Assembly: GCF_030013595.1 (NCBI RefSeq) | Contig: NZ_CP122768.1 | DNA from: Escherichia coli | GTDB lineage: Bacteria > Pseudomonadota > Gammaproteobacteria > Enterobacterales > Enterobacteriaceae | Direction: 5' to 3' (one strand) | DNA: 64,000 nucleotides | Shown: in pieces, positions 1,842 to 51,360 of the stretch | Position numbering within the stretch: the first letter of the stretch is position 1 | Layout of the letters: each line of letters opens with the position of its first letter | Notes under the pieces: generated by a model | Database searches by the model: none | The model's input: only the letters and a program-made list of their open reading frames with translations | What the model was told of the DNA's origin: nothing | Made by a program: the position numbers and the translations under genes

Positions 1842-2261
<420 letters not shown>

Positions 2262-10355: not shown

Positions 10356-11954
10356 ATGGTAACTCGGACAATGCAACAAAAGTATCAGTATGATCGTGTT
10401 TTATCCGGCGAACTCCACCCATTCCCTGGCATATACGAGGCGGTTTCCGAACAAATCCTTTTGCTCATTTTTAAAGCACGTCAACTATATCAGGATCCAG
10501 AATATCGCCCCTGGTTTGAAGAACAGCACAGAGTACTCTCTGCATTACGTGCCAATACAGAGCTCCTGAGAATCTTTAGAGAACAAAGAAGCGCTGAAGA
10601 ACCAAAGCTTACTATTGAAGAGTCTACCTCCCCCCAACCCACTCCTTCTGCTCTTACAGATGCGCTTAATGTGATGTGCCATTTATACAATGGTTTTGAT
10701 GAAGGAAATATCAGTCTGAAAACTTGGGGGGCGATGCAAGAGGTACAGACAACATCAACCTTTATCAGCCCAGGACCGAGAACCTGGAAAACACCTGAAC
10801 TGGCAAAGTTTGTAGGAGATGATTTATTTAATATTCTGACTGAATGTAAGGCCTGGAGTTCACCAATTCCAGCAGAAACCCGACAGGGGTATTGCCATCA
10901 GGATCTGTCTGTTGCACACTCCTGCACCTCAGAGTTACTGGCACACCTGAATCAATATCATGAAATTGATGAATCAGCAATACTTGCCAGAGTTATTGGT
11001 ATAACAGTTAACGGATTCTACAAGAAAAATAATACAGACCTTCCAGAATGGCTATCCCCCTTTAAAGAGGAACATAAAATATTCAGAGATTGTCCGGAGC
11101 AAAATACCGGGGATGTAATCAGACGGAAAGAACAACTGTTGAAAACAGGACGTACAGAATTCGTGAATAATTTGTGTCGGGTCGCCAACTGGTATGAAAT
11201 TGAGTCAATATACGATGAATACGTCCGTCTTTATGCCAATGAAATCATTGACTGGTTCAACAAAACCATGAAGTATTTTAAACCAACAGATTTTATCCGA
11301 TATACATGGAAATTCGCAACAGTTACTCCGGATAAAGATACAGAAACCGGGCATACAACTGCATGGGAAAAGGATTATTGCCAGATAACCATACAACGTG
11401 ATGAACTTCTGAGGTTGATTCACACCAATACCCTTCAGGATGCAGTAATTTATCTTTGTCATTGTCTACAGAAGGAATACAAGAAATCATCCCAAAATGA
11501 GATAGAGTTCCCAGGAATAAAACCTCCGACATCAGAGAGTAAAATTAATATAACAAATAATATTAAATTTCATTCTCTCCTGGAGCTCAGTAAAGATAAT
11601 GAGAAGCGTCTGGAAACATTTCAAAAATGGTATGAAAAAAATAAAGTTTTGTTAGAAAGTCATAAACAAAAACGAACAGAGAAGATTGACGTTGCCGTAC
11701 GACTTGTAGGGCTGAAAGCCTATGATCTGCATGAAGGGATTCCGGATAGTCCAAAACGAAAAGTTAAAGATGGCATAAATGAAGACATCAAAGCCGATAC
11801 CAGTTTACGCCTGTCAAAGACAAATATAAGTGATACGTCGCTAAACCGTTATCGCCGCACTGTTAAGGAGATTATCAATAACGAAATTGACGCATTCCTG
11901 TTGGAACAGAAGAAAAAAATAAAAGATTTCCCTACAGTGAAGATAGAGATGTGA
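10356..11954 (+). CDS. hypothetical protein, 532 aa, AT-rich island cargo gene; no recognisable domain
   Basis: Long ATG-initiated ORF with no stops in a visibly AT-rich block, preceded by ~670 bp of AT-rich non-coding DNA; lysine-rich C-terminal third. Confidence 0.6.
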   Translation: MVTRTMQQKYQYDRVLSGELHPFPGIYEAVSEQILLLIFKARQLYQDPEYRPWFEEQHRVLSALRANTELLRIFREQRSAEEPKLTIEESTSPQPTPSALTDALNVMCHLYNGFDEGNISLKTWGAMQEVQTTSTFISPGPRTWKTPELAKFVGDDLFNILTECKAWSSPIPAETRQGYCHQDLSVAHSCTSELLAHLNQYHEIDESAILARVIGITVNGFYKKNNTDLPEWLSPFKEEHKIFRDCPEQNTGDVIRRKEQLLKTGRTEFVNNLCRVANWYEIESIYDEYVRLYANEIIDWFNKTMKYFKPTDFIRYTWKFATVTPDKDTETGHTTAWEKDYCQITIQRDELLRLIHTNTLQDAVIYLCHCLQKEYKKSSQNEIEFPGIKPPTSESKINITNNIKFHSLLELSKDNEKRLETFQKWYEKNKVLLESHKQKRTEKIDVAVRLVGLKAYDLHEGIPDSPKRKVKDGINEDIKADTSLRLSKTNISDTSLNRYRRTVKEIINNEIDAFLLEQKKKIKDFPTVKIEM

Positions 11955-12078
11955 TTCGACCTTTATGGGGAAAATGCCTGACCGGGCAGTAGATCACAGA
12001 TGGGATAACATCCCGGTTATCCCCTGTTTGTTCTGCTTCAGGTTGCCAGAGCTCCAGGAACACGAGGCAATCGGCAAA

Positions 12079-12675
12079 TTATGCGGCTTTTCCATTAACA
12101 GATTCGGCCACAAGAACAACACCGTGTTTGTTTCGATCAGGATGTTCACTCCAGATTTCTGATTCAGGAATACTTTCCCCATCATAGCAGATCCGATCAC
12201 CATCAAACGGATAATACCGTGCGGAATCTGTATCTAAGATAAACACCTTAAGATTCGTTGAACGACGCGCTATATGCTGCCAGAGGGCTTTACCTCCTTC
12301 ATATTGCTCGTTATCACTTAATAGTATAACGCCTGCTTTTGTGGCTATTGTTTCATAAACAAACGTAGCAAGGCTAACATCACGTACAGCACCATCGACA
12401 ACAATCCCTTCAATCTGAGCAACGTCCTGTTCTTCCCAGAATTTCCGGACAAACACCCCTTCAAGCTGTGAACGACGCTGAAGCTCCAGAGTGGCAACAA
12501 CCTTATGGCGAATATCACCATCAATAACAGAAGGTGCAGCTTCGATTACCGCAGCGAACGGAGTCTTTGGATCCCAGATGATCTGGTAAAGCACACCCTG
12601 AATAGTTACTCCATCCAGTATCGAAAAACGACGAGCTACAGTAGCAGGGGAGTAAGACATTGGAATGACAGCCAT
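12079..12675 (-). CDS. hypothetical protein, 198 aa, adjacent to the tRNA 3' end
   Basis: ATG-initiated ORF convergent with the 532-aa gene; no recognisable motif; no clear Shine-Dalgarno upstream. Confidence 0.5.
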   Translation of the reverse strand: MAVIPMSYSPATVARRFSILDGVTIQGVLYQIIWDPKTPFAAVIEAAPSVIDGDIRHKVVATLELQRRSQLEGVFVRKFWEEQDVAQIEGIVVDGAVRDVSLATFVYETIATKAGVILLSDNEQYEGGKALWQHIARRSTNLKVFILDTDSARYYPFDGDRICYDGESIPESEIWSEHPDRNKHGVVLVAESVNGKAA

Positions 12676-12985
12676 TTTATGGCCTAAAATTTGAAAACAT
12701 CAGTATCAATACTGACCTCATCAGTCTGAGCATATATTGATAAAGTTTTTATGTTTACACTCAATAAATACCTTACCAAACAACTAATAGCGATGTCTAC
12801 ATTGCCATTCGACATGCTTACAATTTTTGTCAACAAGAAAGTGAATTTATATCAACGGTAAGAAGTAAACACGAGGACACCAAAACCAAATGTACACACT
12901 TTTGTGCTTTGTGTCCCCTGTGTGTACCCAAATGACAAACTGCAAGAAAATCTAGGCACACACTTATCTAACTTATTGATTTAAA

Positions 12986-13061
12986 TGGTGCCGATAATAG
13001 GAGTCGAACCTACGACCTTCGCATTACGAATGCGCTGCTCTACCAACTGAGCTATATCGGC
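12986..13061 (-). tRNA. thrW: tRNA-Thr (anticodon CGU), thrW-like; island integration site at its 3' end
   Basis: Reverse complement reads GCCGATATAGCTCAGTTGGTAGAGCAGCGCATTCGTAATGCGAAGGTCGTAGGTTCGACTCCTATTATCGGCACCA: cloverleaf-compatible, anticodon loop ttCGTaa, CCA end. Confidence 0.93.
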
Positions 13062-38596: not shown

Positions 38597-39382
38597 TTAC
38601 AGCGTCTGGCTGATGTACTGCAACATATCGTCCGCTGCCGACACCATTTTGGCGTTCATCTCGTACGCGCGTTGCACCGTAATCATCGCCACCATTTCGT
38701 TGACGATATCCACGTTCGAGCCTTCCAGTGCGTTGTCCTGCAAAGTGCCAAGCCCATCTTCGCCCGGCACACCTTCTGTCGGCTGACCGCTGGCGGCGGT
38801 TTCCAGATAGAGGTTGTCACCCTCGGCGGAAAGCCCCGCCGGGTTAGCGAAGTTAACCAGCGTCAGTTGCCCTAACTCGGTCACGTCGCTGTCGCCAGGT
38901 AAGATCGCCGTCACCGTGCCGTCCTCACCAAAAGCAACATTAGTCGCCCCCGCCGGAACGTCGATTTCCGGTTGTAACGGCAAGCCCTGCGAGTTGGTCA
39001 GCACGCCGTCGGCGTTCACCTGCAAGTTGCCGTCGCGGGTATAGGCGATATCGCCGTTGGCCTTTTGCACCTGTAAAAATCCCTGCCCCATAATGGCGAC
39101 ATTCATCGCGTTGTCGGTGGTTTCAACGTTGCCTTCGGTGAAGGTTTTCTGGGTGCCGACAATGCGCACGCCGCTACCGAATTGCAGCCCGGTCGGCATG
39201 ATGTTGTTCTGGTCGAGCATCGCGCCCGGCGCTTCCTGGGTCTGGTAGAACAGATCCTGAAACATCACCCGGTCGCGCTTGAAGCCGGTGGTGTTAACGT
39301 TGGCGATGTTGTTGGCAATCGCGCTCATTTCAGCATCCTGCGCCGAGAGGCCGGTTTTGCTGATCCATAGTGCTGCGTTCAT
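38597..39382 (-). CDS. lfgG: FlgG-like distal rod protein
   Basis: 261 aa, MNAALWISKTGLSAQDAEMSAIANNIANVNTTGFKRDR... and ...ITVQRAYEMNAKMVSAADDMLQ. Confidence 0.88.
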   Translation of the reverse strand: MNAALWISKTGLSAQDAEMSAIANNIANVNTTGFKRDRVMFQDLFYQTQEAPGAMLDQNNIMPTGLQFGSGVRIVGTQKTFTEGNVETTDNAMNVAIMGQGFLQVQKANGDIAYTRDGNLQVNADGVLTNSQGLPLQPEIDVPAGATNVAFGEDGTVTAILPGDSDVTELGQLTLVNFANPAGLSAEGDNLYLETAASGQPTEGVPGEDGLGTLQDNALEGSNVDIVNEMVAMITVQRAYEMNAKMVSAADDMLQYISQTL

Positions 39383-39415
39383 GGTGGTAAATTCCGTATT
39401 GTTTTGGGCCGCGGT

Positions 39416-39447
39416 TGCCGGATGCGGCGTGAACTTATCCGGCCTAC
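39416..39447. repeat. REP element between lfgG and lfgF
   Basis: tgccggatgcggcgtgaacttatccggcctac. Confidence 0.75.
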
Positions 39448-39456
39448 GATGTGCGG

Positions 39457-40194
39457 TTACGAGCCGCGCAATAAGCGGTTGCCCGCGTCGCTGATATCTT
39501 CGGCGGTTTTCATCATCTTGATTTGCGCTTCAAACTGGCGGTTCATGGCGATGGACGACATCATCTCGCTCACCGCCGAGACGTTGCTGCCTTCGAGAAA
39601 ACCGCCACTGACTTTGATATTTTCATCGCGCTGGGCCGGAACGCCGTCGGCAGTTATCAGCATCCCTTCAGGATTTTTCGCTAGGTTAGCAACCGGAATA
39701 TCCACCAGCTTCAGGCGGTCGATATCCATCGTCGCGGTCACGTCGCCGTCATCGGGCGTCACCGACAGCGTGCCGTCGCTGCCAAACGAGGCGATGGCGT
39801 TCGGCGGCAGAATGATCGGCCCGTTATCCCCCTGCACCAGATTGCCGTCGATGACCAGTTGCCCCTGGTCGTCCTGCTGAATGTTGCCGTTGCGGGTATA
39901 CACTTCGTTGCCGTTTTTATCCTGCACCGCAATGTAACCCGCGCCCTGAATCGCCACGTCCAGCGGGCGTTCGGTTTTCTCCGCTACACCCGTGCTGTCG
40001 TTCACGCCGCTGGCCCCTTCCTGCGCCATATAGCGCGTGTCGAAGCCACCGCCTTTCACCTTGTCGTTGGTCGCCATCGCCATATCGGCACGAAAACCAT
40101 TGGTGTTGACGTTCGCCAGGTTGTTGGCGCTGATCTGCTGCTCGTACAGGGTCTGAGAAGCACCGCTCAGGGCGGTATAAATCAAACGGTCCAT
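39457..40194 (-). CDS. lfgF: FlgF-like proximal rod protein
   Basis: 245 aa, MDRLIYTALSGASQTLYEQQISANNLANVNTNGFRAD... Confidence 0.85.
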   Translation of the reverse strand: MDRLIYTALSGASQTLYEQQISANNLANVNTNGFRADMAMATNDKVKGGGFDTRYMAQEGASGVNDSTGVAEKTERPLDVAIQGAGYIAVQDKNGNEVYTRNGNIQQDDQGQLVIDGNLVQGDNGPIILPPNAIASFGSDGTLSVTPDDGDVTATMDIDRLKLVDIPVANLAKNPEGMLITADGVPAQRDENIKVSGGFLEGSNVSAVSEMMSSIAMNRQFEAQIKMMKTAEDISDAGNRLLRGS

Positions 40195-41396
40195 TACATT
40201 GCCTGGAACAGCGCGTCATCGAGCTGCGTGCTGGTAGCGATAACTTTGGTGTTGGCCTGATAGTTACGCTGGGCGGTCATCAAGTTGACCAGTTCGCTGG
40301 TGATATCGACGTTAGAGCTTTCGAGCACGCCGGACGACAGCGTGCCGCAGGTGCCGGAGCCGGGAACGCCAATCAGCGGGGTGCCGGACTCGCCCGTTTG
40401 TACCCACGCGGTGCCGCTCACTGCCTCCAGGCCGTTTTCATTCGGGAAAGTCGCCAGCACCACCTGCCCCTGCAACATGCGCTCGCCGTTGCTGTAGGTG
40501 GCGTAAACTTTGCCATCGTCATCAACCTGCACACCGTTTTGCGTTGCGGAGGCGTAGCCGTTGGCAGCGTTGGTGGTGACCGAGAAGTCCGAGCCGTATT
40601 GCGTACAAGTGGTGTAATCGACGGTTAAGTCGATGGGTGCGGCGGCGTCGGTCTGAAACTCAATGGTCTGCGGTGTGGTTGGCGAGGTCAGCTTCCCGGT
40701 ATTCGGGTCGAAAGTTAAGGTCGTCGCCGGAACGCCAGTCTGCTGCTGACCGTCGAAGGTGTACTGCACTTCCCAGGTGTTTTCGCTGGTTTTGGTGAAA
40801 TACTGGCATACCGAGTGTTCGTTACCTAATGAGTCATACACCGTGGTGGTGTAGCTGTCGGTGTACGAGCTGCTGTTGGTCGGGTCGAACGGTACGGTGG
40901 TGCGATCGATAGCTTCATCGCTGGCGTTGAAGTTAGCGGTAAAGGTCAGGCTGCTGCTGGCCTGCGCCGGGATATTGCCGGTTTTGATCTGGATATCGGT
41001 GACCGTACCGGTTTGCAGAGTGCCCGTGTCATCGACCGGATAACCCTGTAAATAAGCGCCCGAGGCGTTGACAATATAGCCGTTTTTGTCGGTTTCAAAC
41101 GATCCGGCGCGGGTATAAGAAATGTTGCCCGCGCTGTCGCAGGTCACAAAAAAGCCATCGTTGTTAATCGCCAGATCCAGCGCGTTACCGGTGGAGACCA
41201 GCGAACCGCCGCGCGAAATGCTTTGCGCGGTGCCTGCCACGCTGACGCCCATCGCCTGACTTCCGGCATACATGGCTGAAAACTGGGTGGTCATCGACTT
41301 ATAGCCTACCGTTCCGGCGTTGGCGATGTTGTTACTGATCCCGTCGAGCTGTTCGTTAACGGCATTCAGCCCCGTTGCGGCAATTTCATAACTCAT
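40194..41396 (-). CDS. lfgE: FlgE-like hook protein
   Basis: 400 aa, MSYEIAATGLNAVNEQLDGISNNIANAGTVGYK... and ...VNLMTAQRNYQANTKVIATSTQLDDALFQAM. Confidence 0.88.
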   Translation of the reverse strand: MSYEIAATGLNAVNEQLDGISNNIANAGTVGYKSMTTQFSAMYAGSQAMGVSVAGTAQSISRGGSLVSTGNALDLAINNDGFFVTCDSAGNISYTRAGSFETDKNGYIVNASGAYLQGYPVDDTGTLQTGTVTDIQIKTGNIPAQASSSLTFTANFNASDEAIDRTTVPFDPTNSSSYTDSYTTTVYDSLGNEHSVCQYFTKTSENTWEVQYTFDGQQQTGVPATTLTFDPNTGKLTSPTTPQTIEFQTDAAAPIDLTVDYTTCTQYGSDFSVTTNAANGYASATQNGVQVDDDGKVYATYSNGERMLQGQVVLATFPNENGLEAVSGTAWVQTGESGTPLIGVPGSGTCGTLSSGVLESSNVDITSELVNLMTAQRNYQANTKVIATSTQLDDALFQAM

Positions 41397-41441
41397 TGTT
41401 TCGTCCTGTTAATTCAAATTTTGACAGCGTGCCCGTTGTTT

Positions 41442-41524
41442 TGCCGGATGCGGCGAACGCCTTATCCGGCCTACAAAACCATGCAGTTTCATGTAGGCCT
41501 GATAAGCGAAGCGCATCAGGCAAT
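41442..41524. repeat. BIME (paired REP elements) between lfgE and lfgD
   Basis: ttgccggatgcggcgaacgccttatccggcctaca ... tgtaggcctgataagcgaagcgcatcaggca. Confidence 0.8.
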
Positions 41525-41537
41525 TTGGCACCGGACA

Positions 41538-42251
41538 TCACGCCACATCACTGTCGGCATCGGGTACGCCAAACTGGCTAATCATGGTGAACGGCACTTC
41601 GCCCACGCCTGCAACATTGAGCACCGGAGAGCCGCCGTCGAGCGGGATGCGTACATCTTCCACTTCGCCGGAAACTTCAATCGGCACCTCTTCTTCCCCG
41701 GTGTTGGTCACCACCGAGACGTCGTAATCACCCGGCGGGATACCGTAATCCGCCGGATTAATCGAGAAATCCACCTGGCCTGGCCCGACGGACGAACTGC
41801 CTTCCGGGATCAGCGACACCGTATAGTCATCGCCTGCGGCATCGGTAAAGTGGAGATCGGCGGTGGTACAGGCGTCGTCAAGCGTGGCGCGACCATTAAT
41901 GGTCTGGTCGCTCACCTGCAAGGCGGTGGTCTGCACCATAATGTCGTCACCCACCAGGTTGCCGAGCGCCATTACCTGAATGTTGCTCATCAGCACCGCG
42001 TTGGTGTTGGCCTGCACGCTCATCTCTTCCATCATCGCCACCTGCGCCATCGACGAAAGCTGGTCGATGTATTCGGTGGCGTCAGTCGGGTCGGTCGGGT
42101 CCTGGTTTTGGATCTCGGCGACAAACAGCGTCAGGAAGGTATCGACGGGCGAGCTATCGCTGCTGCTTGTCGTGTCGCTGGCCGCCACGTTGTTGCTTTC
42201 CGCCGTGGCGGTCGGCTGCGGCGATTGCGCATTCAGCACCAAGGTATTCAT
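41538..42251 (-). CDS. lfgD: FlgD-like hook capping/scaffold protein
   Basis: 237 aa with FlgD-like N-terminus ...VDTFLTLFVAEIQNQDPTDPTDATEYIDQL. Confidence 0.8.
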   Translation of the reverse strand: MNTLVLNAQSPQPTATAESNNVAASDTTSSSDSSPVDTFLTLFVAEIQNQDPTDPTDATEYIDQLSSMAQVAMMEEMSVQANTNAVLMSNIQVMALGNLVGDDIMVQTTALQVSDQTINGRATLDDACTTADLHFTDAAGDDYTVSLIPEGSSSVGPGQVDFSINPADYGIPPGDYDVSVVTNTGEEEVPIEVSGEVEDVRIPLDGGSPVLNVAGVGEVPFTMISQFGVPDADSDVA

Positions 42252-42682
42252 CAGGCTTCTCCCAGTTTCAGCAAACTTTGCTGCATACTTTTCACGTTGT
42301 TGAGCACATCGACATTGGTTTCGAAATCGCGCGAGGCCGACATCATGTCCGCCATCTGTTCCACCACGTTGACGTCGGGATACCAGACATCCCCGTTAGC
42401 ATCCGCCAGCGGCGAATGCGGTTCATAGCGTTTCACCGCCCCGCCGGTTTGCAGCACGTCCTGCACCTGCACGCTGGCACCATCGATCGCATGGCGATGC
42501 GTTCCCGCCAGCAAGCTGTGGTGATACACCGCCGCAAACACCGGGCTGCGCGCTTTATACGCCTGTGCCTCGCTGCCGGCAGGTGCATTGGCATTCGCCA
42601 GGTTACTGGCAACGGTATTCAGACGTAGCGTTTGCGCCGTCATCGCCGAACCGGAAATCTGATAGATATCAGTAAATGACAT
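42251..42682 (-). CDS. lfgC: FlgC-like rod protein
   Basis: 143 aa, MSFTDIYQISGSAMTAQTLRLNTVASNLANANA... Confidence 0.88.
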   Translation of the reverse strand: MSFTDIYQISGSAMTAQTLRLNTVASNLANANAPAGSEAQAYKARSPVFAAVYHHSLLAGTHRHAIDGASVQVQDVLQTGGAVKRYEPHSPLADANGDVWYPDVNVVEQMADMMSASRDFETNVDVLNNVKSMQQSLLKLGEA

Positions 42683-42684
42683 GC

Positions 42685-43020
42685 TTATTTCCCTTCAATG
42701 GCCTCTCTGATGCCGCTGATTTGCAGATTCAGAAAGGTCAGACTGCTTTGATAATCCATACTATTTTGTGAAAACCGCGCCTGTTCACTGTTCAGCTCCA
42801 CGGTGTTGCCATCTTCCGACGGCTGCATCGGCACGCGGTACTGGACATCCACCGCCGCGTTATTTGCCCGTTGCATCTCCCTGGCAAAATCAATATCTTT
42901 AGCCTTGAAATTTGGCGTATCGACGTTCGCCAGATTCGCAGTCAGTAGCTCGGTCCTCTCAAGACGTAACTTCACTGCCTGCGGATGCACTCCCAATGCT
43001 TGTTGAAAACTGATCCCCAT
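42685..43020 (-). CDS. lfgB: FlgB-like rod protein (start moved downstream of the sigma-54 promoter)
   Basis: MGISFQQALGVHPQAVKLRLERTELLTANLANVDTPNFKAKDIDF... FlgB-like; the upstream ATG at 43050 lies inside the predicted promoter-to-start-site interval, so ATG 43020 (GGAG upstream) is preferred. Confidence 0.75.
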   Translation of the reverse strand: MGISFQQALGVHPQAVKLRLERTELLTANLANVDTPNFKAKDIDFAREMQRANNAAVDVQYRVPMQPSEDGNTVELNSEQARFSQNSMDYQSSLTFLNLQISGIREAIEGK

Positions 43021-43056
43021 TCTCTGCGTCACTCCTGCTTCAATCCGCATACGCTA

Positions 43057-43072
43057 AGCAATCGCTGTGCCA
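43057..43072 (-). promoter_or_regulatory. sigma-54 promoter core (-24/-12) for the lfgB rod/hook operon
   Basis: Minus strand reads TGGCACAGCGATTGCT = TGGCAC-N5-TTGC, ~35 nt upstream of the lfgB start. Confidence 0.7.
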
Positions 43073-43101
43073 TTTTTTAAGTGACTGATGAGAAAGGGTT
43101 T

Positions 43102-43839
43102 ATGAGTTTTCAATTTTGCAGGCGGAAGTTTTATTTCCTCCTGGCGCTGACCTTACCGGGCTACGCCGCCGTCCACCCCGTGCAACACAGCGCGCGGGAA
43201 CAAGTCAACGCCCAGGTACTGAATGCCGCGAGCCAGGAAATTGAATCGCTGGCGCAACAGCGGCGCTGGCATGACTATCGCTACACCTTTAAGGTCTATA
43301 TTCCCTCGCAGATTGCGACCGCCGCCCCCTGTGCGACTACACCCGGCGTCACGCTCACTTCGCCTGCGGAAATCACCCTCAACCGGATGAACTTCACCGT
43401 CAGTTGCCCGCAAAGCTGGCAGATGAACGTGGCGGTGCGCCCGGATGTTCTGGTGCCGGTGGTAATGGCGAAGTCACTGGTTGCCCGCGACACGCCGCTC
43501 ACGGCAAATGATGTGGAGTTGAAGCCCTACAACGTCAGCGCCCAGCGCCGCAATGTGTTGATGGATCCCGATGACGCGATTGGTTTCAGCAGTAAACACG
43601 CGCTGCAACCGGGCAGGCCCATCACCAAAGAAGAGCTGGTTTCGCCAGTGCTGGTCGAACGCGATCAGCCGGTGATGATTGTTTACCAGAGCGCGGGGAT
43701 CACCGCCTCGATGCCCGGCGTGGCGCTGAAAAATGGTCGCAAAGGCGAGATGGTGAAAGTGCGTAACGCCAGCAGCCAGCGGGTCATCAGCGCGATGGTG
43801 GCGGAAAGCGGCGTGGTAACAACGGTAAGCGCGGAGTAA
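43102..43839 (+). CDS. lfgA: FlgA-like P-ring assembly chaperone
   Basis: ORF trimmed to MSFQFCRRKFYFLLALTLPGYAAV signal peptide; divergent from lfgB. Confidence 0.75.
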   Translation: MSFQFCRRKFYFLLALTLPGYAAVHPVQHSAREQVNAQVLNAASQEIESLAQQRRWHDYRYTFKVYIPSQIATAAPCATTPGVTLTSPAEITLNRMNFTVSCPQSWQMNVAVRPDVLVPVVMAKSLVARDTPLTANDVELKPYNVSAQRRNVLMDPDDAIGFSSKHALQPGRPITKEELVSPVLVERDQPVMIVYQSAGITASMPGVALKNGRKGEMVKVRNASSQRVISAMVAESGVVTTVSAE

Positions 43840-44026
43840 TTTGCTGTAATACCGCGTAGCATATGTATGACTAGCTCCCAATATTCTGACTTTCTGACAA
43901 ATTTCATTGTGTATTTTGGATAATTATTGAGCACTCAATCACTACTGTTTAAATATCCAGATGATAACTATTTCATCTGGGTCAAATGAGTGATATTGTA
44001 TCACCAATAAGACCTACGGGGGTGCT

Positions 44027-45451
44027 ATGTCTGAATTTGAATTGCTCGTGAAAGATCTTCTTTTAAAATCAGAAGAAGACGAGAAAAAGCGACAAGAAAA
44101 AGATCGAGAATTAATTTCAAAGGTTCTTGAAATCTATGATCAAAAATATGTTGCAGAACTCCTACGAAAAGTAGGAAAAAATGAATGGAGCAGAGAAACA
44201 CTTAACCGTTGGATAAATGGTAAGTGTAACCCTAAACAATTAACTTCTGCTGAGGAAACTTTACTTCGAAAGATGCTTCCAGAACCTCCCGAACATCATC
44301 CTAACTATACATTTCGTTTTATTGATTTATTCGCAGGGATTGGTGGTATTCGTAAAGGCTTCGAAAATATTGGTGGGCAGTGTGTTTTTACTAGCGAATG
44401 GAATAAAGAAGCGGTAAGAACCTACAAAGCTAATTGGTTTAATGATGAACTAAATCATAAATTTAATCTTGATATACGAGAAGTCACTTTAAGTGATAGA
44501 GATGATGTTTCCGAAATGGAAGCCTATAATCATATAGACAAAAATATTCCAGATCATGATGTCCTTCTGGCCGGTTTTCCATGTCAGCCCTTTAGTCTGG
44601 CTGGGGTAAGCAAGAAAAATTCTCTGGGGCGTGCACATGGTTTTGAATGTGAGGCACAAGGAACACTATTTTTTGATGTCGCTCGAATTATTAAATCAAA
44701 AAAACCAGCTATTTTTGTGCTTGAGAATGTGAAGAACCTTAAAAGTCATGATAAAGGTAAGACTTTTAAAGTCATCATGGAAACACTCAATGAATTAGGG
44801 TATGAAGTCGCCGATGCTGGTGTGACTGGCTCAGATGATCCTAAAATTATAGATGGAAAACATTTTTTACCCCAACATCGTGAGCGTATAGTGTTGGTAG
44901 GATTTCGTAGGGATCTAAATATTCACAAGGATTTCACGTTACGAAATATTAACCGCTTTTACCCTCAAAACAGGCCAACATTTGGTGAATTATTAGATCA
45001 TGATGTTGACGACAAATATATTTTGACTCCAAGGTTATGGGAATATCTTTACAATTATGCAAAAAAACATGCAGCAAAAGGAAATGGATTTGGTTTTGGT
45101 TTAGTGGATCCTAAAAATCCAGATAGTATCGCACGAACGCTGTCTGCTCGTTACCATAAAGATGGCTCTGAAATACTGATCGATCGTGGCTGGGATAAGG
45201 CTGTCGGTGAAATCGATTTTAGTAATCCAGCGAATCAAGAGAATCGACCAAGAAGACTGACACCTCATGAATGTGCCAGGTTAATGGGTTTTGAAAAACC
45301 AGGGGGAAGACCTTTTAGAATACCTGTATCAGATACTCAAGCTTATAGACAATTTGGGAACTCAGTTGTTGTGCCAGTATTTGAAGCTGTAGCAAGATTA
45401 CTAGAACCGTACATACAAAAGGCTGTCAGCATGCAAGTTATTAACGATTAA
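44027..45451 (+). CDS. DNA (cytosine-5)-methyltransferase, Dcm/M.EcoRII-like (predicted CCWGG specificity)
   Basis: 474 aa with motifs [15 protein letters not shown] (I), [10 protein letters not shown] (IV), ENVKNL (VI), [10 protein letters not shown] (X); collinear with E. coli Dcm as recalled; ACGGGGG RBS; AT-rich compared with flanking flagellar genes. Confidence 0.85.
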
Positions 45452-45474
45452 TAATAATTAACTTTCACTATTGT

Positions 45475-45498
45475 GAGGCCTTTTTTATTAAAGGCCTC
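45475..45498. terminator. bidirectional hairpin between the convergent methyltransferase and endonuclease genes
   Basis: gaggccttttttattaaaggcctc perfect stem-loop in the 87-bp convergent intergenic region. Confidence 0.6.
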
Positions 45499-45538
45499 TA
45501 AATATATAATCATAAGTTATTATAAGTATACTTTTATA

Positions 45539-46744
45539 TTATATAAAATCTTCATACAGCGTTATTAACTGTGTGATAAAACCCTCTAACGTTAATAATC
45601 CATCCCTGATTTCCTCCGGATATTTTTTATGAAGAGGGGAAGGTACAACCAAGGTGACACCTTCAGCTCTCATTTCGTTAAATTGAGCAACTGAGACACC
45701 CTCTTGTAAGGTAAACAAATATATTTTGTTGATTTTATTTGCTTCATTGAGTGCCTGACGCCACCGATCCTTACATGTTGTTTTTACAGCAAGCATACGG
45801 AGTTTTTCTCTTGGAAAGTGATCATCATGGTAAGCTGCCGCTGATGGAAAAAGAAAATCGGGTTTCTTTTTTCCTTCAGTAATACATTGAGTAGCAAAAT
45901 GATGCAGTCCATGCTCAATAAAAATTTGCTCAAGATGTAGCTCCAGTGATTTCCCGGCTCGAGATTTTCTTCGATTACTAACAGAGTTAGCCATAGCTAT
46001 AAAATCATCTACAGAACCAAACCCTTGACGGATGATGTCCAGTACGTGAATTTCTTCAACCATTAGAAAGAGATCATATTCAATACGGCGGCGTTCTAAA
46101 AGTTGGTCATCTGGACTGGTTACGCCTGTTGGGTAATAACCCGCAGCATATTGAATAATCTCTAAGCCAGAAGGAAAGCTATGTTTCCAGCTTTCCGGAA
46201 TAACATATTCCTTTTGAGAGATTTTTGGCCTTGATGCGAGTACACCAAGTATTTCACTGGCAGGCCCAAACATTAAAGTTCCAGGAATGATCTCCCCAAT
46301 AGCTGATTCCAGTACATCCTCTTCTTCTGGGCTAACACAAACCCATACATCAACACTTTTGCTGTCTCTCCCTGGCTCATGTTCAAACGCAAGCACAGAC
46401 AAAGCACCTGTATTTTCCGGATCCTGTAGGGGACTGCCAGCCCCCCACCGAGTGATGCGTTTTTCATTTCTTGTTTGCCCGAAATACTTATTATTGTAGT
46501 AAATAGCGCGAACCTCACTGTCTACACATTCATGAGAGGAATAAGTTGCGCGCAATAAAACCGAAGGATTTTTTTCTGACGTATGATCTATAGATGGGAA
46601 AAGTTCAGCGACGATACCAGAAGGGATATATACCCCCACTTGATGCCCTCCTGTTGCACCAGTGTCGTTTGCTGAAAGACGTTTAATATAGAGATAGTTG
46701 TTACCACCGACCTTATCAAGCAGCCAATCTTGTAATCCTGACAT
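45539..46744 (-). CDS. type II restriction endonuclease, EcoRII-like
   Basis: 401 aa; N-terminal ...YIKRLSANDTGATGGHQVGVYIPSGIV... and overall collinearity with R.EcoRII as recalled; convergent partner of a Dcm-like methylase. Confidence 0.65.
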   Translation of the reverse strand: MSGLQDWLLDKVGGNNYLYIKRLSANDTGATGGHQVGVYIPSGIVAELFPSIDHTSEKNPSVLLRATYSSHECVDSEVRAIYYNNKYFGQTRNEKRITRWGAGSPLQDPENTGALSVLAFEHEPGRDSKSVDVWVCVSPEEEDVLESAIGEIIPGTLMFGPASEILGVLASRPKISQKEYVIPESWKHSFPSGLEIIQYAAGYYPTGVTSPDDQLLERRRIEYDLFLMVEEIHVLDIIRQGFGSVDDFIAMANSVSNRRKSRAGKSLELHLEQIFIEHGLHHFATQCITEGKKKPDFLFPSAAAYHDDHFPREKLRMLAVKTTCKDRWRQALNEANKINKIYLFTLQEGVSVAQFNEMRAEGVTLVVPSPLHKKYPEEIRDGLLTLEGFITQLITLYEDFI

Positions 46745-46797
46745 AAGACATCCTTATTTTTGCATAGTATCCGATTCAGATTTTTCCACATATCCAT

Positions 46798-46831
46798 CAG
46801 AACGACCAGAACGACCAGAACGACCAGAACC
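46798..46831. repeat. tandem 9-bp repeat (CAGAACGAC, three full copies plus one partial) in the endonuclease/lfgM divergent region
   Basis: cag-aacgaccag-aacgaccag-aacgaccag-aacc read directly, 54-87 bp upstream of the endonuclease ATG. Confidence 0.9.
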
Positions 46832-46934
46832 AACATATCTGAACAAAAAGTAAATATGCGATAACGATTAAAGTTTTGCCGCCTGTTAACCGCTTTACCG
46901 GAGTAACCCACCTAAATACCGAGACGAGGTTGCG

Positions 46935-47210
46935 ATGAAAATCACCCCGACTATGCCAGGCAATCGCCCGACAGTCACAACGGCAGGCTCCAGCCAGCCG
47001 CGCAAAGGCACGGCGACCACCACGACGCTAAGCGCCGACGACATTACCCAGGCGGGATTGCAGTCTGCCCAGCAAACACTGAACGACCAGCAAGAGAGCG
47101 ATATCGACAGCGATAAAGTGGCGCAAATGCAGGCGATGCTGGCCTCCGGCAGCCTGCAAGTGGACACCGAACAGTTAGCCAGCGACATGCTGAGTTTTTT
47201 CCAGAACTAA
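46935..47210 (+). CDS. lfgM: FlgM-like anti-sigma-28 factor
   Basis: 91 aa; C-terminal ...VAQMQAMLASGSLQVDTEQLASDMLSFFQN matches the FlgM sigma-28-binding region; GAGG RBS. Confidence 0.8.
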   Translation: MKITPTMPGNRPTVTTAGSSQPRKGTATTTTLSADDITQAGLQSAQQTLNDQQESDIDSDKVAQMQAMLASGSLQVDTEQLASDMLSFFQN

Positions 47211-47222
47211 GAGGCCGATGAA

Positions 47223-47651
47223 GTGAGTATCAGGTTACAACAGGTGAAGGCGTTGTTGCAGGGAATTCGTGACGATGACGCGCTGTATGATTCCCTGCGC
47301 GAACTTCTCCAGCGCCAGCGGATCTGCATGATTCGCCGCGCCAGCGAAGAGCTGCTGGCGGTAAACGAGGAGATAACCCATCACTATGAGCAGTTGCATG
47401 GGCATAGCCATCAGCGACACAGCCTGCTGAAAATGCTCGGTGTTAGCGTAAATCGTGACGGTCTGGCGCAGGTATTTGCCTGGCTTCCGGCGGTACAAAA
47501 AGCGGCAGCACAACAGTTGTGGCAACGCCTTGAGCAAAAAGCGGAACGCTGCAAAGCCTACAACGACAAAAACGGCGAGCAGTTGATTCGCCAGTATGAA
47601 TTTATTCAGTCTTTTTTAGGCAGCGAAGCGGATTTTCTGTACCAGGAATAA
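47223..47651 (+). CDS. lfgN: FlgN-like chaperone
   Basis: 142-aa helical protein starting at GTG 47223 with AGAGG upstream; follows lfgM as in flgM-flgN pairs. Confidence 0.7.
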   Translation: MSIRLQQVKALLQGIRDDDALYDSLRELLQRQRICMIRRASEELLAVNEEITHHYEQLHGHSHQRHSLLKMLGVSVNRDGLAQVFAWLPAVQKAAAQQLWQRLEQKAERCKAYNDKNGEQLIRQYEFIQSFLGSEADFLYQE

Positions 47652-47778
47652 CGACCATTCCTTCCCCCATCGCGGAAACGGATTTTCCGCCTGATTCACA
47701 ATCCTTTGTTTTTGATTATAAAAAATCACGGCACGCTTATTGCACATTCCGCAAAGTAATAAAGACTGGAAGCCACCT

Positions 47779-48609
47779 ATGAGTTTTATTGAATGTTACG
47801 AACCGGAATACGTGCGCAATTTTATGACGCAATATCCCGATTCGCCTTTGTACATCCGCAAGGTGTGGAAAAACGAGATTCGCCTGAGCCTGATGCTGAC
47901 AGAGCCAGAAAGTTGCGAAGCGGTGCTCAACGATGCCAGGGCCTTTGATTTACAGCTCACCTACCGCCCGGCGGAAGAAAATGCCGCAGAGCTTTCCGCG
48001 CGCGATGCGATAGTAAACCAGGTCATTTTGAGTACCCTCACGCTCCCCGATTTAACCCCAGAGCTTTCACTATATGCCATCGGGATTTTACTCTCCCGCG
48101 CCAGCAAAATGCCGGGCAGAGACGGAGATATTCTTGCCCGTTTGACGACGCTGCCGCAGGCGCTGGCCGATCATGCGAAAAAAGGCACGCTACAGGCACA
48201 GTTCGCCCAACTTCCGCCCGTGCCACAGCTGGCGCGTCACCTGGCCACGCTACTCGGGAGTTTTACGTTTGACTGGTCGATTTTGCCGGAAAGCCCGCGC
48301 AAAACTTCGCTGCCGTTGCAGATGCCTTTGCTGGCGCTACATGACGCCAACAGCGAAGCCCTGGTGCAACAGCAGCTTCAGGCTCAGTGGCAAACCACCT
48401 GGCAACAGCATTTTGCCACCGCGCCCTGGATGATGCGTAACTGGCTGATTTACCGCGTTTACCATGAGGTGATTGGACAGGCAGACGGAGCAGATTATTG
48501 CCCGCTGGTGTGCGATTTTTATCTTATCCGCACGTTAATCAGTTTTATGGACGCTGGATGGTTCTCCGCTGCGACAGGAGGATATTTTCGCCCTTTTTGC
48601 GGTGTTTGA
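47779..48609 (+). CDS. hypothetical protein in the Flag-2 variable region
   Basis: ORF 47740..48609 begins at a TTG; first ATG with GGAAG RBS is 47779 (MSFIECYEPEYVRNF...); no recognisable domain. Confidence 0.55.
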   Translation: MSFIECYEPEYVRNFMTQYPDSPLYIRKVWKNEIRLSLMLTEPESCEAVLNDARAFDLQLTYRPAEENAAELSARDAIVNQVILSTLTLPDLTPELSLYAIGILLSRASKMPGRDGDILARLTTLPQALADHAKKGTLQAQFAQLPPVPQLARHLATLLGSFTFDWSILPESPRKTSLPLQMPLLALHDANSEALVQQQLQAQWQTTWQQHFATAPWMMRNWLIYRVYHEVIGQADGADYCPLVCDFYLIRTLISFMDAGWFSAATGGYFRPFCGV

Positions 48610-48729
48610 ACGCTGGCGAGAGAGTGAAAATGCGCTGTTTATTCGCCAGCAAATTCAGTCGTTATGTGCGGCAGAGCCGCTGCTTTCAGCATTTTCGCTG
48701 CTGACGTGAGTCGCTCTGTGCGCGCTTTT

Positions 48730-48845
48730 CCCCTCACCCTAACCCTCTCCCCAAAGGGGCGAGGGAACCGATCGAGCACGGTGTTAAAATCGGCGCTGGT
48801 TTTCTCCCCTCTCCCTGTGGGAGAGGGTCGGGGTGAGGGCATCAG
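48730..48845. repeat. GC-rich composite palindromic intergenic repeat, copy C
   Basis: ccctcaccctaaccctctccccaaaggggcgagggaacc ... cccctctccctgtgggagagggtcggggtgaggg, same orientation as copy B. Confidence 0.7.
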
Positions 48846-48888
48846 CACGCACATTCATCACATTCACCCCTTAACTCACCCAGACACC

Positions 48889-51360
48889 ATGCCAACACAA
48901 ACCATCATCAAAACACTCGCCACCCACCGCGAAAAACCGTTTGTCAGCGTCGTCACGCCAACCTGGAACCGTGGCGCATTCCTGCCGTACCTGCTTTATA
49001 TGTACCGCTATCAGGATTACCCGGCAGACCGCCGCGAACTCATCATCCTCGACGACTCGCCGCAAAGCCATCAACACATCATCGACCGCCTGACCAATGG
49101 CACACCGGAAGCCTTTAACATCCGCTATATTCATCACCCGGAAAAACTGCCACTGGGCAAAAAACGCAACATGCTCAACGAACTGGCGAGCGGCGAATAC
49201 ATCCTCTGCATGGACGATGACGACTACTACCCGGCAGATAAAATCTCCTGGACCATCGCCATGATGCAAAAACATAGGGCGCTCATCTCCGGCTCCGACC
49301 AGATCCCCATCTGGTACAGCCACATCAACCGCATTTTCAAAAGCCGCAGCTTTGGCCCGCATAACATCCTCAACGGCACCTTTTGCTATCACCGTAACTA
49401 CCTGAAAAAGCACCGTTACGACGACGATAGCAATTTAGGCGAAGAGAAAAGTTTCACCAACAATTTCAGCGTTAACCCGCTACAACTGCCCGGCGAGCGC
49501 ACGATTCTGTGTATCTCGCACAGCCACAACACCTTTGATAAAGACTTTATTCTCGGGGCCAGCACGCCTGTAAACGCGGCGCTTACGGATATCGTCCGCG
49601 ATCCGCTGCTCCGCAATGCTTATCTGAGTCTGCATAACGCCACTCATCACCAGGCGATCAACCATCAGGCGATCGATCAGATCGTTCTGCTGAATCTGGA
49701 TAAACGCCCGGATCGCTTACAACAGATCCGTGAAGAACTGGCATTGCTGCATATTCCACCTGAGAAGATCACCCGCCTTGCCGCCAGTGAAGATCAAAAC
49801 GGTCAACGGGGTCGCCGCCAGTCGCACTTGCAGGCGCTGCGCCTGGCGCAACAGCACGGCTGGCAAAACTATCTGCTGCTGGAAGATGACGCGGTTATTC
49901 TCAAGCAGGAGAAACATATTCAGGTGCTGAACACGCTGCTGGCGAGCCTGGCGAAAATTCCCTGGCAGGTGATGATCCTTGGCGGCGAAATTTCGCAAGG
50001 AACTATGCTAAAAAGTTTGCCGGGGCTGGTGCACGCGCGGGACTGCCGCAAAGTGTGCGCTTATCTGGTGAACAGCCGCTACTACCCGCAACTGGCGCAG
50101 CAGATGAGCAACGATGAGCACTCGCTGGAAGCCTGCTGGCAGCCGCTGCTACACGCCGACAAATGGCTGGCCTGTTACCCGAGCCTTTGTTACCAGCGAC
50201 CGGGCTTTAGCGATATCGAGAAAAAAGTCACCGACAACATTAGTCACTATTTCAATAAGTTACACGTAACCACCAAGCCATCCACGTTACCCATCGCCGA
50301 CACCATCGGCTTTTTTATGGAAACCTCATTCCACTACGCGCTGTATCGCCCAATCATCACCGCTCTACAGGCGCAGGGGGAGAGCTGCACGCTGGTGATC
50401 AACGACCGCGTGTTTAAACCGTTTCTGGATGAAATGCTGGAGACGCTAAAAAGCATCGACGACCCACAGCTTAAAGGTATGCGCTTGTCTGAGATGCAGG
50501 CACACGGCCAGCGGATGAAATGCCTGGTCAGCCCCTACCACACGCCCGCGCTCAATGGCCTGGCAGCGGTGAACGTTCGCGCCATGTATGGCTTAGCCAA
50601 AGAAACGTGGAACCACGCCGACTGGAACCGTTTTTATCAGCGCATTTTGTGTTACAGCCACTACAGCCAGCAGGCGCTGGCGCATTTCGGTAGCGCAAAA
50701 GTGGTCGGCAACCCACGCTTCGACGCCTGGCATAACGGCACGTTCGACCGCACTCTGCCGGAAAATATCCAACCCGATTCCTGTAAACCTACGGTGCTCT
50801 ACGCCCCTACGTTTGGCGCACTAAGCTCCCTGCCCCACTGGGCAGAAAAATTAGGCCGCTTAAGTGGCAATGTGAATCTGATTTGCAAACTGCACCACGG
50901 CACCTGCTCGCGCCCGGAAGAAACTGCATCGCTGGCACTGGCGCGCAGGCATTTAAAACGGCGCACCGACTCCGCCCGCCACACGCTGGCGCTGCTGGCA
51001 AAGGCCGATTACGTGCTGACCGATAACAGCGGCTTTATTTTCGATGCTATTCACGTTGATAAGCGGGTGATCCTGCTCGACTTTCCGGGCATGAGTGAAT
51101 TGCTCGACGGCGAGAAAAGCTACTCCACGCCGGAGAGCGCCGATCAGCAAATCCGCGAAATATTGCCGGTGGCTCATGATATGGCAGAGTTGCGTTACTT
51201 GTTGTCAGAGGCGTTTGACTGGGGGGCGGTGCAGACACGGCTTAAGGAGATTCGTCATCACTATTGCGATGCGTTTATGGATGGCAAGGCGGGAGAACGG
51301 GCGGCGATGGTGATTGTTGAGGCGCTGGCGGACAAGGAACCGTCAGGGATATGTCGATAA
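48889..51360 (+). CDS. three-domain glycosyltransferase: N-terminal GT2-like, central GT25-like, C-terminal CDP-glycerol glycerophosphotransferase (TagF)-like
   Basis: 823 aa from ATG 48889; VVTPTWNR...CMDDDD (GT-A/DXD); IVLLNLDKRPDRLQQI...LLLEDDAVIL (GT25-like); VLYAPTFG and YVLTDNSGFIFDAIHV (TagF-family signatures). Confidence 0.7.
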   Translation: MPTQTIIKTLATHREKPFVSVVTPTWNRGAFLPYLLYMYRYQDYPADRRELIILDDSPQSHQHIIDRLTNGTPEAFNIRYIHHPEKLPLGKKRNMLNELASGEYILCMDDDDYYPADKISWTIAMMQKHRALISGSDQIPIWYSHINRIFKSRSFGPHNILNGTFCYHRNYLKKHRYDDDSNLGEEKSFTNNFSVNPLQLPGERTILCISHSHNTFDKDFILGASTPVNAALTDIVRDPLLRNAYLSLHNATHHQAINHQAIDQIVLLNLDKRPDRLQQIREELALLHIPPEKITRLAASEDQNGQRGRRQSHLQALRLAQQHGWQNYLLLEDDAVILKQEKHIQVLNTLLASLAKIPWQVMILGGEISQGTMLKSLPGLVHARDCRKVCAYLVNSRYYPQLAQQMSNDEHSLEACWQPLLHADKWLACYPSLCYQRPGFSDIEKKVTDNISHYFNKLHVTTKPSTLPIADTIGFFMETSFHYALYRPIITALQAQGESCTLVINDRVFKPFLDEMLETLKSIDDPQLKGMRLSEMQAHGQRMKCLVSPYHTPALNGLAAVNVRAMYGLAKETWNHADWNRFYQRILCYSHYSQQALAHFGSAKVVGNPRFDAWHNGTFDRTLPENIQPDSCKPTVLYAPTFGALSSLPHWAEKLGRLSGNVNLICKLHHGTCSRPEETASLALARRHLKRRTDSARHTLALLAKADYVLTDNSGFIFDAIHVDKRVILLDFPGMSELLDGEKSYSTPESADQQIREILPVAHDMAELRYLLSEAFDWGAVQTRLKEIRHHYCDAFMDGKAGERAAMVIVEALADKEPSGICR

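Follow-up and report, generated by a model that had tools for sequence, protein, structure and literature searches.

A chromosomal EcoRII-family restriction-modification pair between lfgA and lfgM in the Flag-2 locus of Escherichia

The Flag-2 flagellar genes lfgA and lfgM of Escherichia coli (contig NZ_CP122768.1, NCBI RefSeq assembly GCF_030013595.1) are separated by a region that is, with high probability, a chromosomal Type IIE restriction-modification pair of the EcoRII family, having the mechanism and history proposed below. The analysis covered a stretch of 64,000 nucleotides, referred to here as the window. An earlier sequence-only reading of this DNA had described a methylase gene and an endonuclease gene lying convergently around a perfect hairpin, in an AT-rich insert that parts lfgA from lfgM-lfgN. 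Comparison with databases and related loci bears out this arrangement, with the two genes at 44027-45451 (+ strand) and 45539-46744 (- strand) and both proteins matching the EcoRII family (1na6, 3me5, Pfam, NCBIfam).

The pair is the same feature as, and already known from, the cargo genes reported by De Maayer, Pillay & Coutinho 2020 (BMC Genomics 21:100; PMC6993521), who list EcoRII (401 aa) and Dcm (474 aa) in the Flag-2 loci of 21 Escherichia strains, with average amino-acid identities of 97.1% and 98.6%, respectively. It lies outside the variable regions VR1 and VR2 defined there, inside cluster 2 between lfgA and lfgM. In that account the pair serves as one example of cargo, to which the present analysis adds boundaries, age, selection and the relation to the host Dcm.

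Genes and regulatory sequences of the pair

The methylase gene (M; 44027-45451, + strand) encodes a C5-cytosine methyltransferase of 474 residues, assigned by structure, NCBIfam and Pfam matches. The protein aligns with the Shigella Dcm structure 3me5 (E=4e-211), scores 911.9 bits against NCBIfam PRK10458 (cutoff 710) and contains both the DNA_methylase domain (PF00145) and, at residues 28-84, the DNA_meth_N (repressor) domain PF18284. The C5-methyltransferase motifs are present as FAGIGG (102), PCQPFS (185), ENV (233) and GNSV (444). The sequence-only reading had called this protein Dcm-like, which holds for the family but not for a paralogue of Dcm: M shares 82% protein identity with plasmid M.EcoRII and 66% with the host Dcm, and is best regarded from these identities as an orthologue of the former. 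The contrast is strongest in the N-terminal 90 residues (78% versus 32%), whereas the catalytic lobe is 77% identical to that of Dcm. Like the methylase of the chromosomal dcm-vsr locus (an orphan methylase with a very-short-patch repair endonuclease), M belongs to family PRK10458 and has the same predicted target. Unlike dcm, M is paired with a restriction gene and has no vsr overlapping its 3' end, where an 87-bp non-coding spacer is followed by the convergent endonuclease gene. The cassette was rejected as a dcm-vsr locus because it lacks vsr; the host vsr-dcm pair is located elsewhere in the carrier.

The endonuclease gene (R; 45539-46744, - strand) was assigned to the Type IIE enzymes of the EcoRII family by structure, Pfam and PADLOC matches. 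Its product of 401 residues is a full-length EcoRII homologue, which aligns over the whole length of the EcoRII structure 1na6 (E=4e-188) and combines an N-terminal B3-like effector domain (EcoRII-N, residues 16-164, E=4e-60) with a C-terminal PD-(D/E)XK catalytic domain (EcoRII-C, residues 226-390, E=5e-70). We compared the protein with the catalytic, recognition and DNA-contact residues published for EcoRII (PMC2770665). The active site E271, D299, K324 and E337 is kept as E268, D296, K321 and E334. In EcoRII numbering, the CC:GG readers (N260, K328, D329, R330), the flipped-base pocket (R222, E225, Y226, F229, R265, A266) and the base contacts of the effector domain (N28, H36, Q37, Y85, R94, E96, R98) are all conserved, and 12 of the 13 DNA contacts of the N-terminal domain are retained, the exception being the phosphate contact K92, which is replaced by Q. 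Because these published catalytic, CC:GG-reading, base-flipping and effector contacts are conserved, the CCWGG specificity predicted in the sequence-only reading, which would overlap that of the host Dcm, is strongly indicated. By homology, M would transfer a C5 methyl group onto the inner cytosine of CCWGG, and R would be an autoinhibited dimer cutting unmethylated CCWGG only once further sites occupy its N-terminal effector domains.

The sequence preceding M (43945-44026, + strand) is a putative promoter/operator region distinguished by its near-invariance across EcoRII systems. Approximately 85 bp upstream of M are almost identical in the window, an IncN EcoRII plasmid and a Yokenella plasmid, whereas the genes themselves are only about 71-74% identical. 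This region contains two palindromes, CCAGATGA-N8-TCATCTGG (43957-43980) and GTGATA-N3-TATCAC (43990-44004), both shared with plasmid EcoRII and neither found again within the window. M has the regulatory N-terminal domain typical of M.EcoRII, and its gene is preceded by a putative cognate operator. Since autorepression of ecoRIIM has been published (Som & Friedman 1994, as cited in PMC12707154), the palindromic region may act as an operator at which the N-terminal DNA-binding domain of M probably represses its own promoter. The region upstream of R (46745-46864, - strand), on the other hand, is poorly conserved relative to plasmid EcoRII and contains a tandem repeat with a 9-bp unit (CAGAACGAC, 46798-46830), present in 3.7 copies in the window and in 1.7 units in all other copies examined.

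Between the ends of the two genes lies a perfect hairpin with a 9-bp stem (45475-45498, no strand assigned), the arms of which, GAGGCCTTT and AAAGGCCTC (45475-45483 and 45490-45498), enclose a 6-nt loop. Its fold has a z-score of -3.8, and none of 200 shuffled sequences folds as well. The IncN and Yokenella systems have a hairpin of different sequence at the equivalent position, and an intergenic hairpin is retained in E. marmotae-type loci. A canonical intrinsic terminator was rejected at this position, as the hairpin is not followed by a T-tail and the terminator scan gave no call; the structure probably marks a transcript end or serves as a buffer between convergent transcripts. The EcoRII system found on IncN and other enterobacterial plasmids (R.EcoRII, PDB 1NA6/3HQF/3HQG; M.EcoRII) resembles the cassette in having the same two genes with the same convergent order and domain architecture.

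Boundaries of the insert and the flanking flagellar genes

Alignment with empty-site loci and with ten other occupied E. coli loci placed the inserted cassette at 43845-46864 (no strand). At 3,020 bp, the copy in the window is slightly longer than those of other E. coli (2,999-3,002 bp) and of E. marmotae-type loci (about 2,976 bp). The insert takes the place of 5 bp (GCWGG) in the 80-bp spacer that joins lfgA to lfgM in empty alleles. All 11 E. coli loci and the E. marmotae-type loci share the same junctions, and so, at least on the left side, does Escherichia sp. MOD1-EC7003. The cassette has a GC content of 0.38 against 0.57-0.58 in the flanks, and a GC3 of 0.24-0.31 against 0.73.

The only two ORFs in the insert are the convergent genes of the pair, with no transposase, integrase or other mobility gene among them. 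Terminal repeats were searched for at the insert ends and not found, and comparison of empty and occupied alleles revealed no target-site duplication, 5 bp being replaced instead. The cassette does not qualify as a transposon, IS or integrative element, and an Rfam scan of 43500-47300 gave no match. The replaced GCWGG matches CCWGG at four of five positions, but insertion at the enzyme's own site is unsupported: no empty allele with CCWGG at the insertion point was found in JGI metagenomes, where the single match was unrelated, or in 5,426 E. coli genomes, where every full-length match carried this one mismatch. At their right inner end the E. coli copies read AAGTAAATATGCGATAA, similar to the target (GAGTAATTTGCGCAGG); the E. 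marmotae copies lack this likeness, which was taken as chance. The left-end segment (43845-43944, no strand) is specific to this cassette lineage and has no counterpart in plasmid EcoRII systems, plasmid matches to the cassette starting only at query position 93-101. A 23-mer from this end was present in one of 100,044 GTDB species representatives, an Escherichia sp. The cassette would have entered once, by illegitimate recombination into the 80-bp spacer, in an early Escherichia lineage.

The flanking genes, identified from the RefSeq annotation of near-identical genomes, are lfgA, the Flag-2 flgA homologue (43081-43839, + strand), on the left and lfgM and lfgN (46935-47651, + strand) on the right. 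The insert begins 5 bp after the lfgA stop codon and leaves intact the 70 bp upstream of lfgM (46865-46934, + strand), which are identical in empty and occupied alleles. This retained segment starts with CGAT-TAAAGTTT, so that TAAAGTTT (46869-46876) lies 4 bp from the insert. The octamer is a perfect match to a sigma-28-type -35 element, but the -10 match is weak and no supporting pattern was found elsewhere within the window; a sigma-28 promoter driving lfgM from beside the right junction is a conjecture. In Salmonella, flgM is expressed from the flgA promoter as well as from its own class-3 promoter. By this analogy, the insertion might matter mainly through flagellar regulation, with the convergent genes and the hairpin uncoupling lfgMN from lfgA read-through, as its placement between the lfgA stop codon and the complete lfgM upstream segment would allow. 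Such an effect is compatible with a retained restriction-modification pair, but as the chief significance of the insertion it appears unlikely, given the weak match at the -10 position and the frameshift in lafV in the Flag-2 locus of this strain.

Distribution, age and selection

Of 5,426 complete E. coli genomes, 28 carry the cassette, in every case at the lfgA-lfgM junction. The great majority of those with Flag-2 (1,250 of 1,278, or 98%) keep lfgA and lfgM contiguous across the empty 80-bp spacer, as the sequence-only reading had stated for enterobacterial flg clusters. The cassette is also present in E. marmotae-type contigs and in one other Escherichia species, at least at the lfgA-side junction. 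Between species it has diverged to the same extent as the left flank (6.0-7.3% versus 6.4-7.3%). Both ORFs are free of stop codons and frameshifts in all copies examined (11 from E. coli and 3 of E. marmotae type), and dN/dS for the two genes is 0.04-0.10 at dS up to 0.17, with R at 0.06-0.09. The cassette most likely goes back to one ancient insertion, and both of its genes are under purifying selection.

On the flank trees, loci with and without the cassette are intermingled, indicating that recombination readily adds or removes it. Within E. coli, copies of the cassette often differ by far less than the sequences directly beside them (0.03% versus 3.8-5.5%), which needs either heterology-bounded recombination or repeated transfer of the cassette. 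Since its entry, the cassette would have persisted as a rare presence/absence allele at the same site, moving among lineages by homologous recombination in the flanks, with both genes retained by purifying selection. M is redundant with the host Dcm, yet it is under strong purifying selection.

Coexistence with Dcm and maintenance of the pair

In nearly all E. coli, CCWGG is methylated by Dcm, so the system would add restriction only against DNA from non-Dcm backgrounds. EcoRII in a recipient has been shown to restrict plasmids from dcm- donors only (PMC11602122). Defence may be the function selected, but where Dcm already methylates the DNA of the species, little should be gained by restriction, in keeping with the observed frequency of 2%.

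The sequence-only reading had suggested that the pair is an addiction module, which would stabilise Flag-2 through residual endonuclease killing cells that lose the cassette. The intactness of both genes would suit this proposal, and plasmid EcoRII causes post-segregational killing in dcm- hosts (PMC3874152). However, killing after loss of EcoRII is attenuated by Dcm (PMC3874152, PMC3424554, PMC11602122); dcm and vsr are intact in the carrier strain JNE070796, whose cassette is identical to that of the window, and a second dcm-like locus is present on 27 of the 28 chromosomes that carry the cassette. With an isospecific host Dcm that attenuates killing, loss of the cassette would probably not leave sites unprotected, as addiction would need. 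The prevalence of Flag-2 loci without the cassette and the ready gain or loss seen on the flank trees also argue against stabilisation, and we regard the proposal as unsupported and highly unlikely.

Equally improbable is a functionally decayed remnant, in which R has lost its activity or been silenced and M only duplicates Dcm. The redundancy of M given the host Dcm and the poorly conserved R upstream region with its variable tandem repeat could be taken in this sense, but the uninterrupted ORFs in all 14 copies, the low dN/dS of R and the intact catalytic and recognition residues indicate otherwise. A recent origin from a plasmid that carries EcoRII, for example IncN, is scarcely credible: conjugative plasmids of Enterobacterales commonly bear such systems (3,890 matching plasmid records), but the best plasmid match is just 71-74% identical in DNA, R is only 69% identical to the IncN protein and M, as noted, 82%, the cassette has 38% GC against 48-49% in the IncN genes, cassette and flanks have diverged together among Escherichia species, and the nearest non-Escherichia homologue of R is 82% identical and sits on a contig of 49% GC. 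This homologue, on a contig of 1.5 kb, was also rejected as the donor because its DNA differs by 26%. In contrast to plasmid EcoRII, the cassette occupies a fixed position on the chromosome, within Flag-2, differs in hairpin sequence and in the region upstream of R, and has no resolvase or IS adjoining it; its DNA is about 71% identical to that of the plasmid system.

The preferred reading, a long-established EcoRII-family pair under purifying selection, can be extended to a bolder proposal, to which we give a minority chance. An EcoRII pair would have been preserved intact at a single chromosomal position from before the split of E. coli and E. marmotae despite an isospecific Dcm, with selection rather than addiction maintaining both genes. 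Possibly, Dcm under-methylates CCWGG in fast growth, which would make the cognate, self-regulated methylase indispensable if the cell is to tolerate the endonuclease. The cassette would then be a long-lived balanced presence/absence polymorphism gating DNA from non-Dcm species, perhaps with the uncoupling of lfgMN from lfgA transcription as a side effect.

EcoRII is among the best-studied restriction enzymes, and the discovery value of one more member of this textbook type, as a cargo pair already in the literature, is small. The cassette is a handy marker for recombination within the Flag-2 locus. It also provides a clean natural case of a restriction-modification system that has long coexisted with an isospecific orphan methylase and is expected to be harmless and nearly useless, yet is selected. 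The case is relevant to the idea of 'Dcm as vaccine' and to the debated question of whether restriction-modification systems are maintained for defence or as selfish elements.

The EcoRII-type gene pair

The window belongs to an E. coli chromosome bearing a Flag-2 (lateral-type flagellar) locus, and its closest complete genome is HCP5S3_I2, from which it differs at 7 aligned positions over 39000-51000. ORF calling placed a methylase gene, M (44027-45451, + strand, 474 aa), and an endonuclease gene, R (45539-46744, - strand, 401 aa), between lfgA (+, ending at 43839) and lfgM (+, starting at 46935), which is followed by lfgN (+, starting at 47223). The GC content drops from 0.55-0.60 to 0.34-0.44 exactly over the cassette carrying both genes (mean GC 0.38; GC3 0.24-0.31, versus 0.73 in lfgA and lfgM). 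The convergent pair, the perfect hairpin and the AT-rich DNA of the sequence-only reading are therefore all seen in the window sequence. CCWGG sites are not avoided, with 4 observed and 2.5 expected in the cassette, and 145 and 137 in the whole window.

On NCBIfam PRK10458 the M protein reaches 912 bits (cutoff 710), and it contains PF00145, an N-terminal DNA_meth_N domain and the full set of C5-methylase motifs. It shares 82% identity with plasmid M.EcoRII (78% over the N-terminal 90 residues), but 66% with the Dcm of a carrier strain (32% over the same stretch). Since the gap is widest at the N-terminus, M is, on protein identity, an orthologue of M.EcoRII rather than a paralogue of Dcm. No vsr gene was found in the cassette among the ORFs and sequence 3' of M.

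The R protein aligns over its whole length to 1na6, a solved structure of EcoRII (E=4e-188), and also to both separately crystallised EcoRII domains. It contains the Pfam domains EcoRII-N and EcoRII-C and has a PADLOC Type II REase match. Functional residues were taken from the EcoRII-DNA co-crystal paper (PMC2770665) and mapped onto R through alignment to an IncN plasmid EcoRII (69% overall protein identity). All residues of the active site (E271, D299, K324, E337 in EcoRII numbering; 4/4), the CC:GG readers (N260, K328, D329, R330; 4/4), the flipped-base pocket (R222, E225, Y226, F229, R265, A266; 6/6) and the effector-domain base contacts (N28, H36, Q37, Y85, R94, E96, R98; 7/7) are conserved; of the 27 residues listed, only K92, a phosphate contact, differs (Q in R). 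The structural alignment, domains and residue conservation bear out the proposed EcoRII-like endonuclease.

Sequences upstream of and between the two genes

The ~85 bp 5' of the M start codon are near-invariant between the window and two plasmids, an IncN plasmid with EcoRII and one from Yokenella, while the coding DNA of the three systems is only about 71-74% identical. The region upstream of M includes the palindromes CCAGATGA-N8-TCATCTGG (43957-43980) and GTGATA-N3-TATCAC (43990-44004), neither of which has further copies elsewhere in the 64-kb window. According to the review PMC12707154 (citing Som & Friedman 1994), M.EcoRII has a fused repressor domain and acts as a repressor of its own gene and not of R, and we therefore read the conserved stretch as a putative M promoter and operator. 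An upstream ATG inside this region (43986-44027) shares the reading frame of the M start (14 codons) in the systems of IncN and Yokenella but, owing to a 1-nt difference, not in the window; the conservation thus looks to act at the DNA rather than the peptide level.

Between the convergent stop codons lies a hairpin with a perfect 9-bp stem, GAGGCCTTT/AAAGGCCTC (45475-45498), which folds better than 200/200 shuffles (z = -3.8). A T-tail is absent, and the terminator scan reported no intrinsic terminator here. All three systems have a hairpin at this position with differing sequences, and E. marmotae-type copies retain it with a shorter loop. This positional conservation points to a structural function where the convergent transcripts end.

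The R upstream region showed no conservation with the plasmid EcoRII systems compared. There, 54-86 bp ahead of the start codon of R, lies a 9-bp tandem repeat (CAGAACGAC; 46798-46830) with 3.7 perfect units in the window versus 1.7 in 10/10 other E. coli cassette copies compared, including a genome otherwise 99.97% identical; the difference is a strain-specific 18-bp expansion.

Boundaries, age and probable recombination of the cassette

Alignment of 6 empty and 11 occupied E. coli loci revealed constant junctions. The empty site reads lfgA-TAA-TTTGC-GC(A/T/G)GG-CGATTAAAGTTTT...lfgM with an 80-bp spacer, bearing out the proposal that the insertion separates otherwise contiguous genes, and the occupied site reads TTTGC-[insert]-CGATTAAAG in all cases. 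The insert corresponds to 43845-46864 and replaces 5 bp of the empty spacer. Locus comparison and a repeat search found neither a target duplication nor a terminal inverted repeat at its ends, and no recombinase or transposase is present among its ORFs, so a single illegitimate recombination event is the likeliest mechanism. Homology to plasmid EcoRII is limited to about 43941-46791, leaving lineage-private ends of ~96 bp (left) and ~73 bp (right). The replaced 5 bp, GCWGG (junctions 43840-43849 and 46860-46869), match the predicted target CCWGG at 4/5 positions and equal the EcoRII overhang in length; the metagenomes and E. coli genomes searched yielded no empty allele carrying CCWGG here. 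On the right, 70/70 bp upstream of lfgM are preserved in occupied loci, and their first bases, TAAAGTTT, form a perfect sigma-28 -35 hexamer-plus. Because the accompanying -10 is weak, a sigma-28-type lfgM promoter here is a conjecture.

Rather than belonging to every Flag-2 locus, the pair occurs in 28 of 5,426 complete E. coli genomes, where it is single-copy and on the chromosome in all cases (96.5-100% identity). In 1,250 genomes lfgA and lfgM are contiguous, and about 2% of the Flag-2-bearing genomes are occupied. The R protein cluster includes E. marmotae entries on contigs with the same lfgA-M-R-lfgM order, and the junctions of L022, an E. marmotae-type locus read in detail, are the same as in E. 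coli. A 23-mer from the private left end was present in 1 of 100,044 GTDB species representatives (Escherichia sp. MOD1-EC7003), adjoining lfgA. The loci of E. coli and those of the E. marmotae type have diverged by 6.0-7.3% in the cassette and 6.4-7.3% in the left flank, and within E. coli the cassette and flank distances are correlated (r = 0.76-0.85). Both ORFs are intact in all copies examined, with dN/dS of 0.04-0.10 at dS up to 0.17. The shared junctions, co-divergence, intact ORFs and low dN/dS indicate one old insertion, which would have co-diverged with the locus under purifying selection.

As to the source, sampled plasmids are ruled out by best DNA matches only 71-74% identical. The IncN genes have 48-49% GC versus 0.38 in the cassette, and the nearest non-Escherichia homologue (82% protein identity) lies on a contig of 49% GC. 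No low-GC donor was found among the plasmids and homologues searched.

Occupied and empty alleles are interspersed in trees of either flank, and several E. coli pairs have near-identical cassettes with flanks 3-5% different. Between the window and E700025, SNPs occur as close as 24 bp to the left junction and 35 bp to the right one. In comparisons with loci L001 and L013 (window 43000-47800), SNP density between some E. coli pairs falls from ~5% to ~0 exactly at the junctions and rises again beyond, which points to recombination tracts that end at the 3-kb heterology. The simplest reading of the interspersed alleles and near-identical cassettes is ordinary homologous recombination: flanks would recombine freely with abundant empty alleles in tracts ending at the heterology, and the cassette only with rare occupied alleles, so that it would coalesce more recently. 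Repeated site-specific transfer is unattractive, as no recombinase is present.

Elsewhere in the window, lafV (flagellin lysine-N-methylase, 47779-48709) has an extra T in a T-run at 48543, causing a frameshift near its 3' end; RefSeq also flags lafV of HCP5S3_I2 as frameshifted. A repeated intergenic REP/BIME-like element (~48700-48900; translating as ...LSPKGRGNRS...) lies between lafV and a glycosyltransferase gene, is missing from E. marmotae-type loci, and probably accounts for the median of 8 places matched by a 7-kb query in >5,000 E. coli genomes. Between the same genes, the carrier locus of E. coli A25 (L009, 7466-8838) has a frameshifted ISEc13 (IS4-like) copy, a further sign of insertion tolerance in this part of Flag-2. 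A tRNA-Thr(CGT) gene (12986-13061) borders an AT-rich island (~6,000-13,000; GC 0.36-0.43). This island, together with the adjoining sequence (region 1-13061), contains transposase fragments (2523-4143), a primase/PrimPol-like ORF (4659-5684), two ORFs that make up a split helicase gene (7424-8874) and several further ORFs without family match. The island resembles a decayed integrative element at thrW.

Host Dcm and the role of the cassette

De Maayer et al. 2020 (PMC6993521) cite EcoRII and Dcm genes in the Flag-2 loci of 21 Escherichia strains as an example of cargo genes, and this pair is the same feature as the cassette; calling it unusual in a flagellar cluster overlooked that report. 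Added here are its exact boundaries, single-event origin and age, the purifying selection on both genes, the conserved putative operator and inter-gene hairpin, the affinity of the methylase to M.EcoRII rather than to Dcm, and the co-residence with dcm-vsr. The category is unchanged by these additions: the cassette is a textbook-family member at an already reported location. Thus, the observation is confirmed for an already known feature, and its initial interpretation is partly supported, being right on identity and insertion.

When the M gene was used as query for distant DNA matches, at least one matching place was found in 5,366 of 5,426 E. coli genomes, and a second place in all carrier chromosomes but one (27/28). 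In JNE070796, whose cassette is 100% identical to that of the window, the second place corresponds to the canonical yedA-vsr-dcm-yedJ locus, where dcm (472 aa) and vsr are both intact. The sole carrier chromosome lacking a second match, NZ_CP090611.1 (4.4 Mb genome, pig), may be a natural dcm-negative carrier with M as its only CCWGG methylase.

The sequence-only reading also suggested an addiction module stabilising Flag-2. Host killing after EcoRII loss is attenuated by Dcm (PMC3874152, PMC3424554), so in natural hosts with Dcm the precondition of unprotected sites after loss is probably absent. Given this and the co-resident Dcm of carriers, addiction is not supported, and 98% of the Flag-2 loci have been retained with no cassette present. 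Previously, recipient EcoRII has been shown to restrict plasmids from dcm- donors only, not from Dcm+ donors, and Dcm is widespread among natural isolates of E. coli (PMC11602122). The cassette likely serves to restrict DNA that lacks CCWGG methylation and originates outside the Dcm-methylating community. The strong constraint on M despite Dcm raises the testable idea that Dcm alone may be insufficient against the endonuclease.
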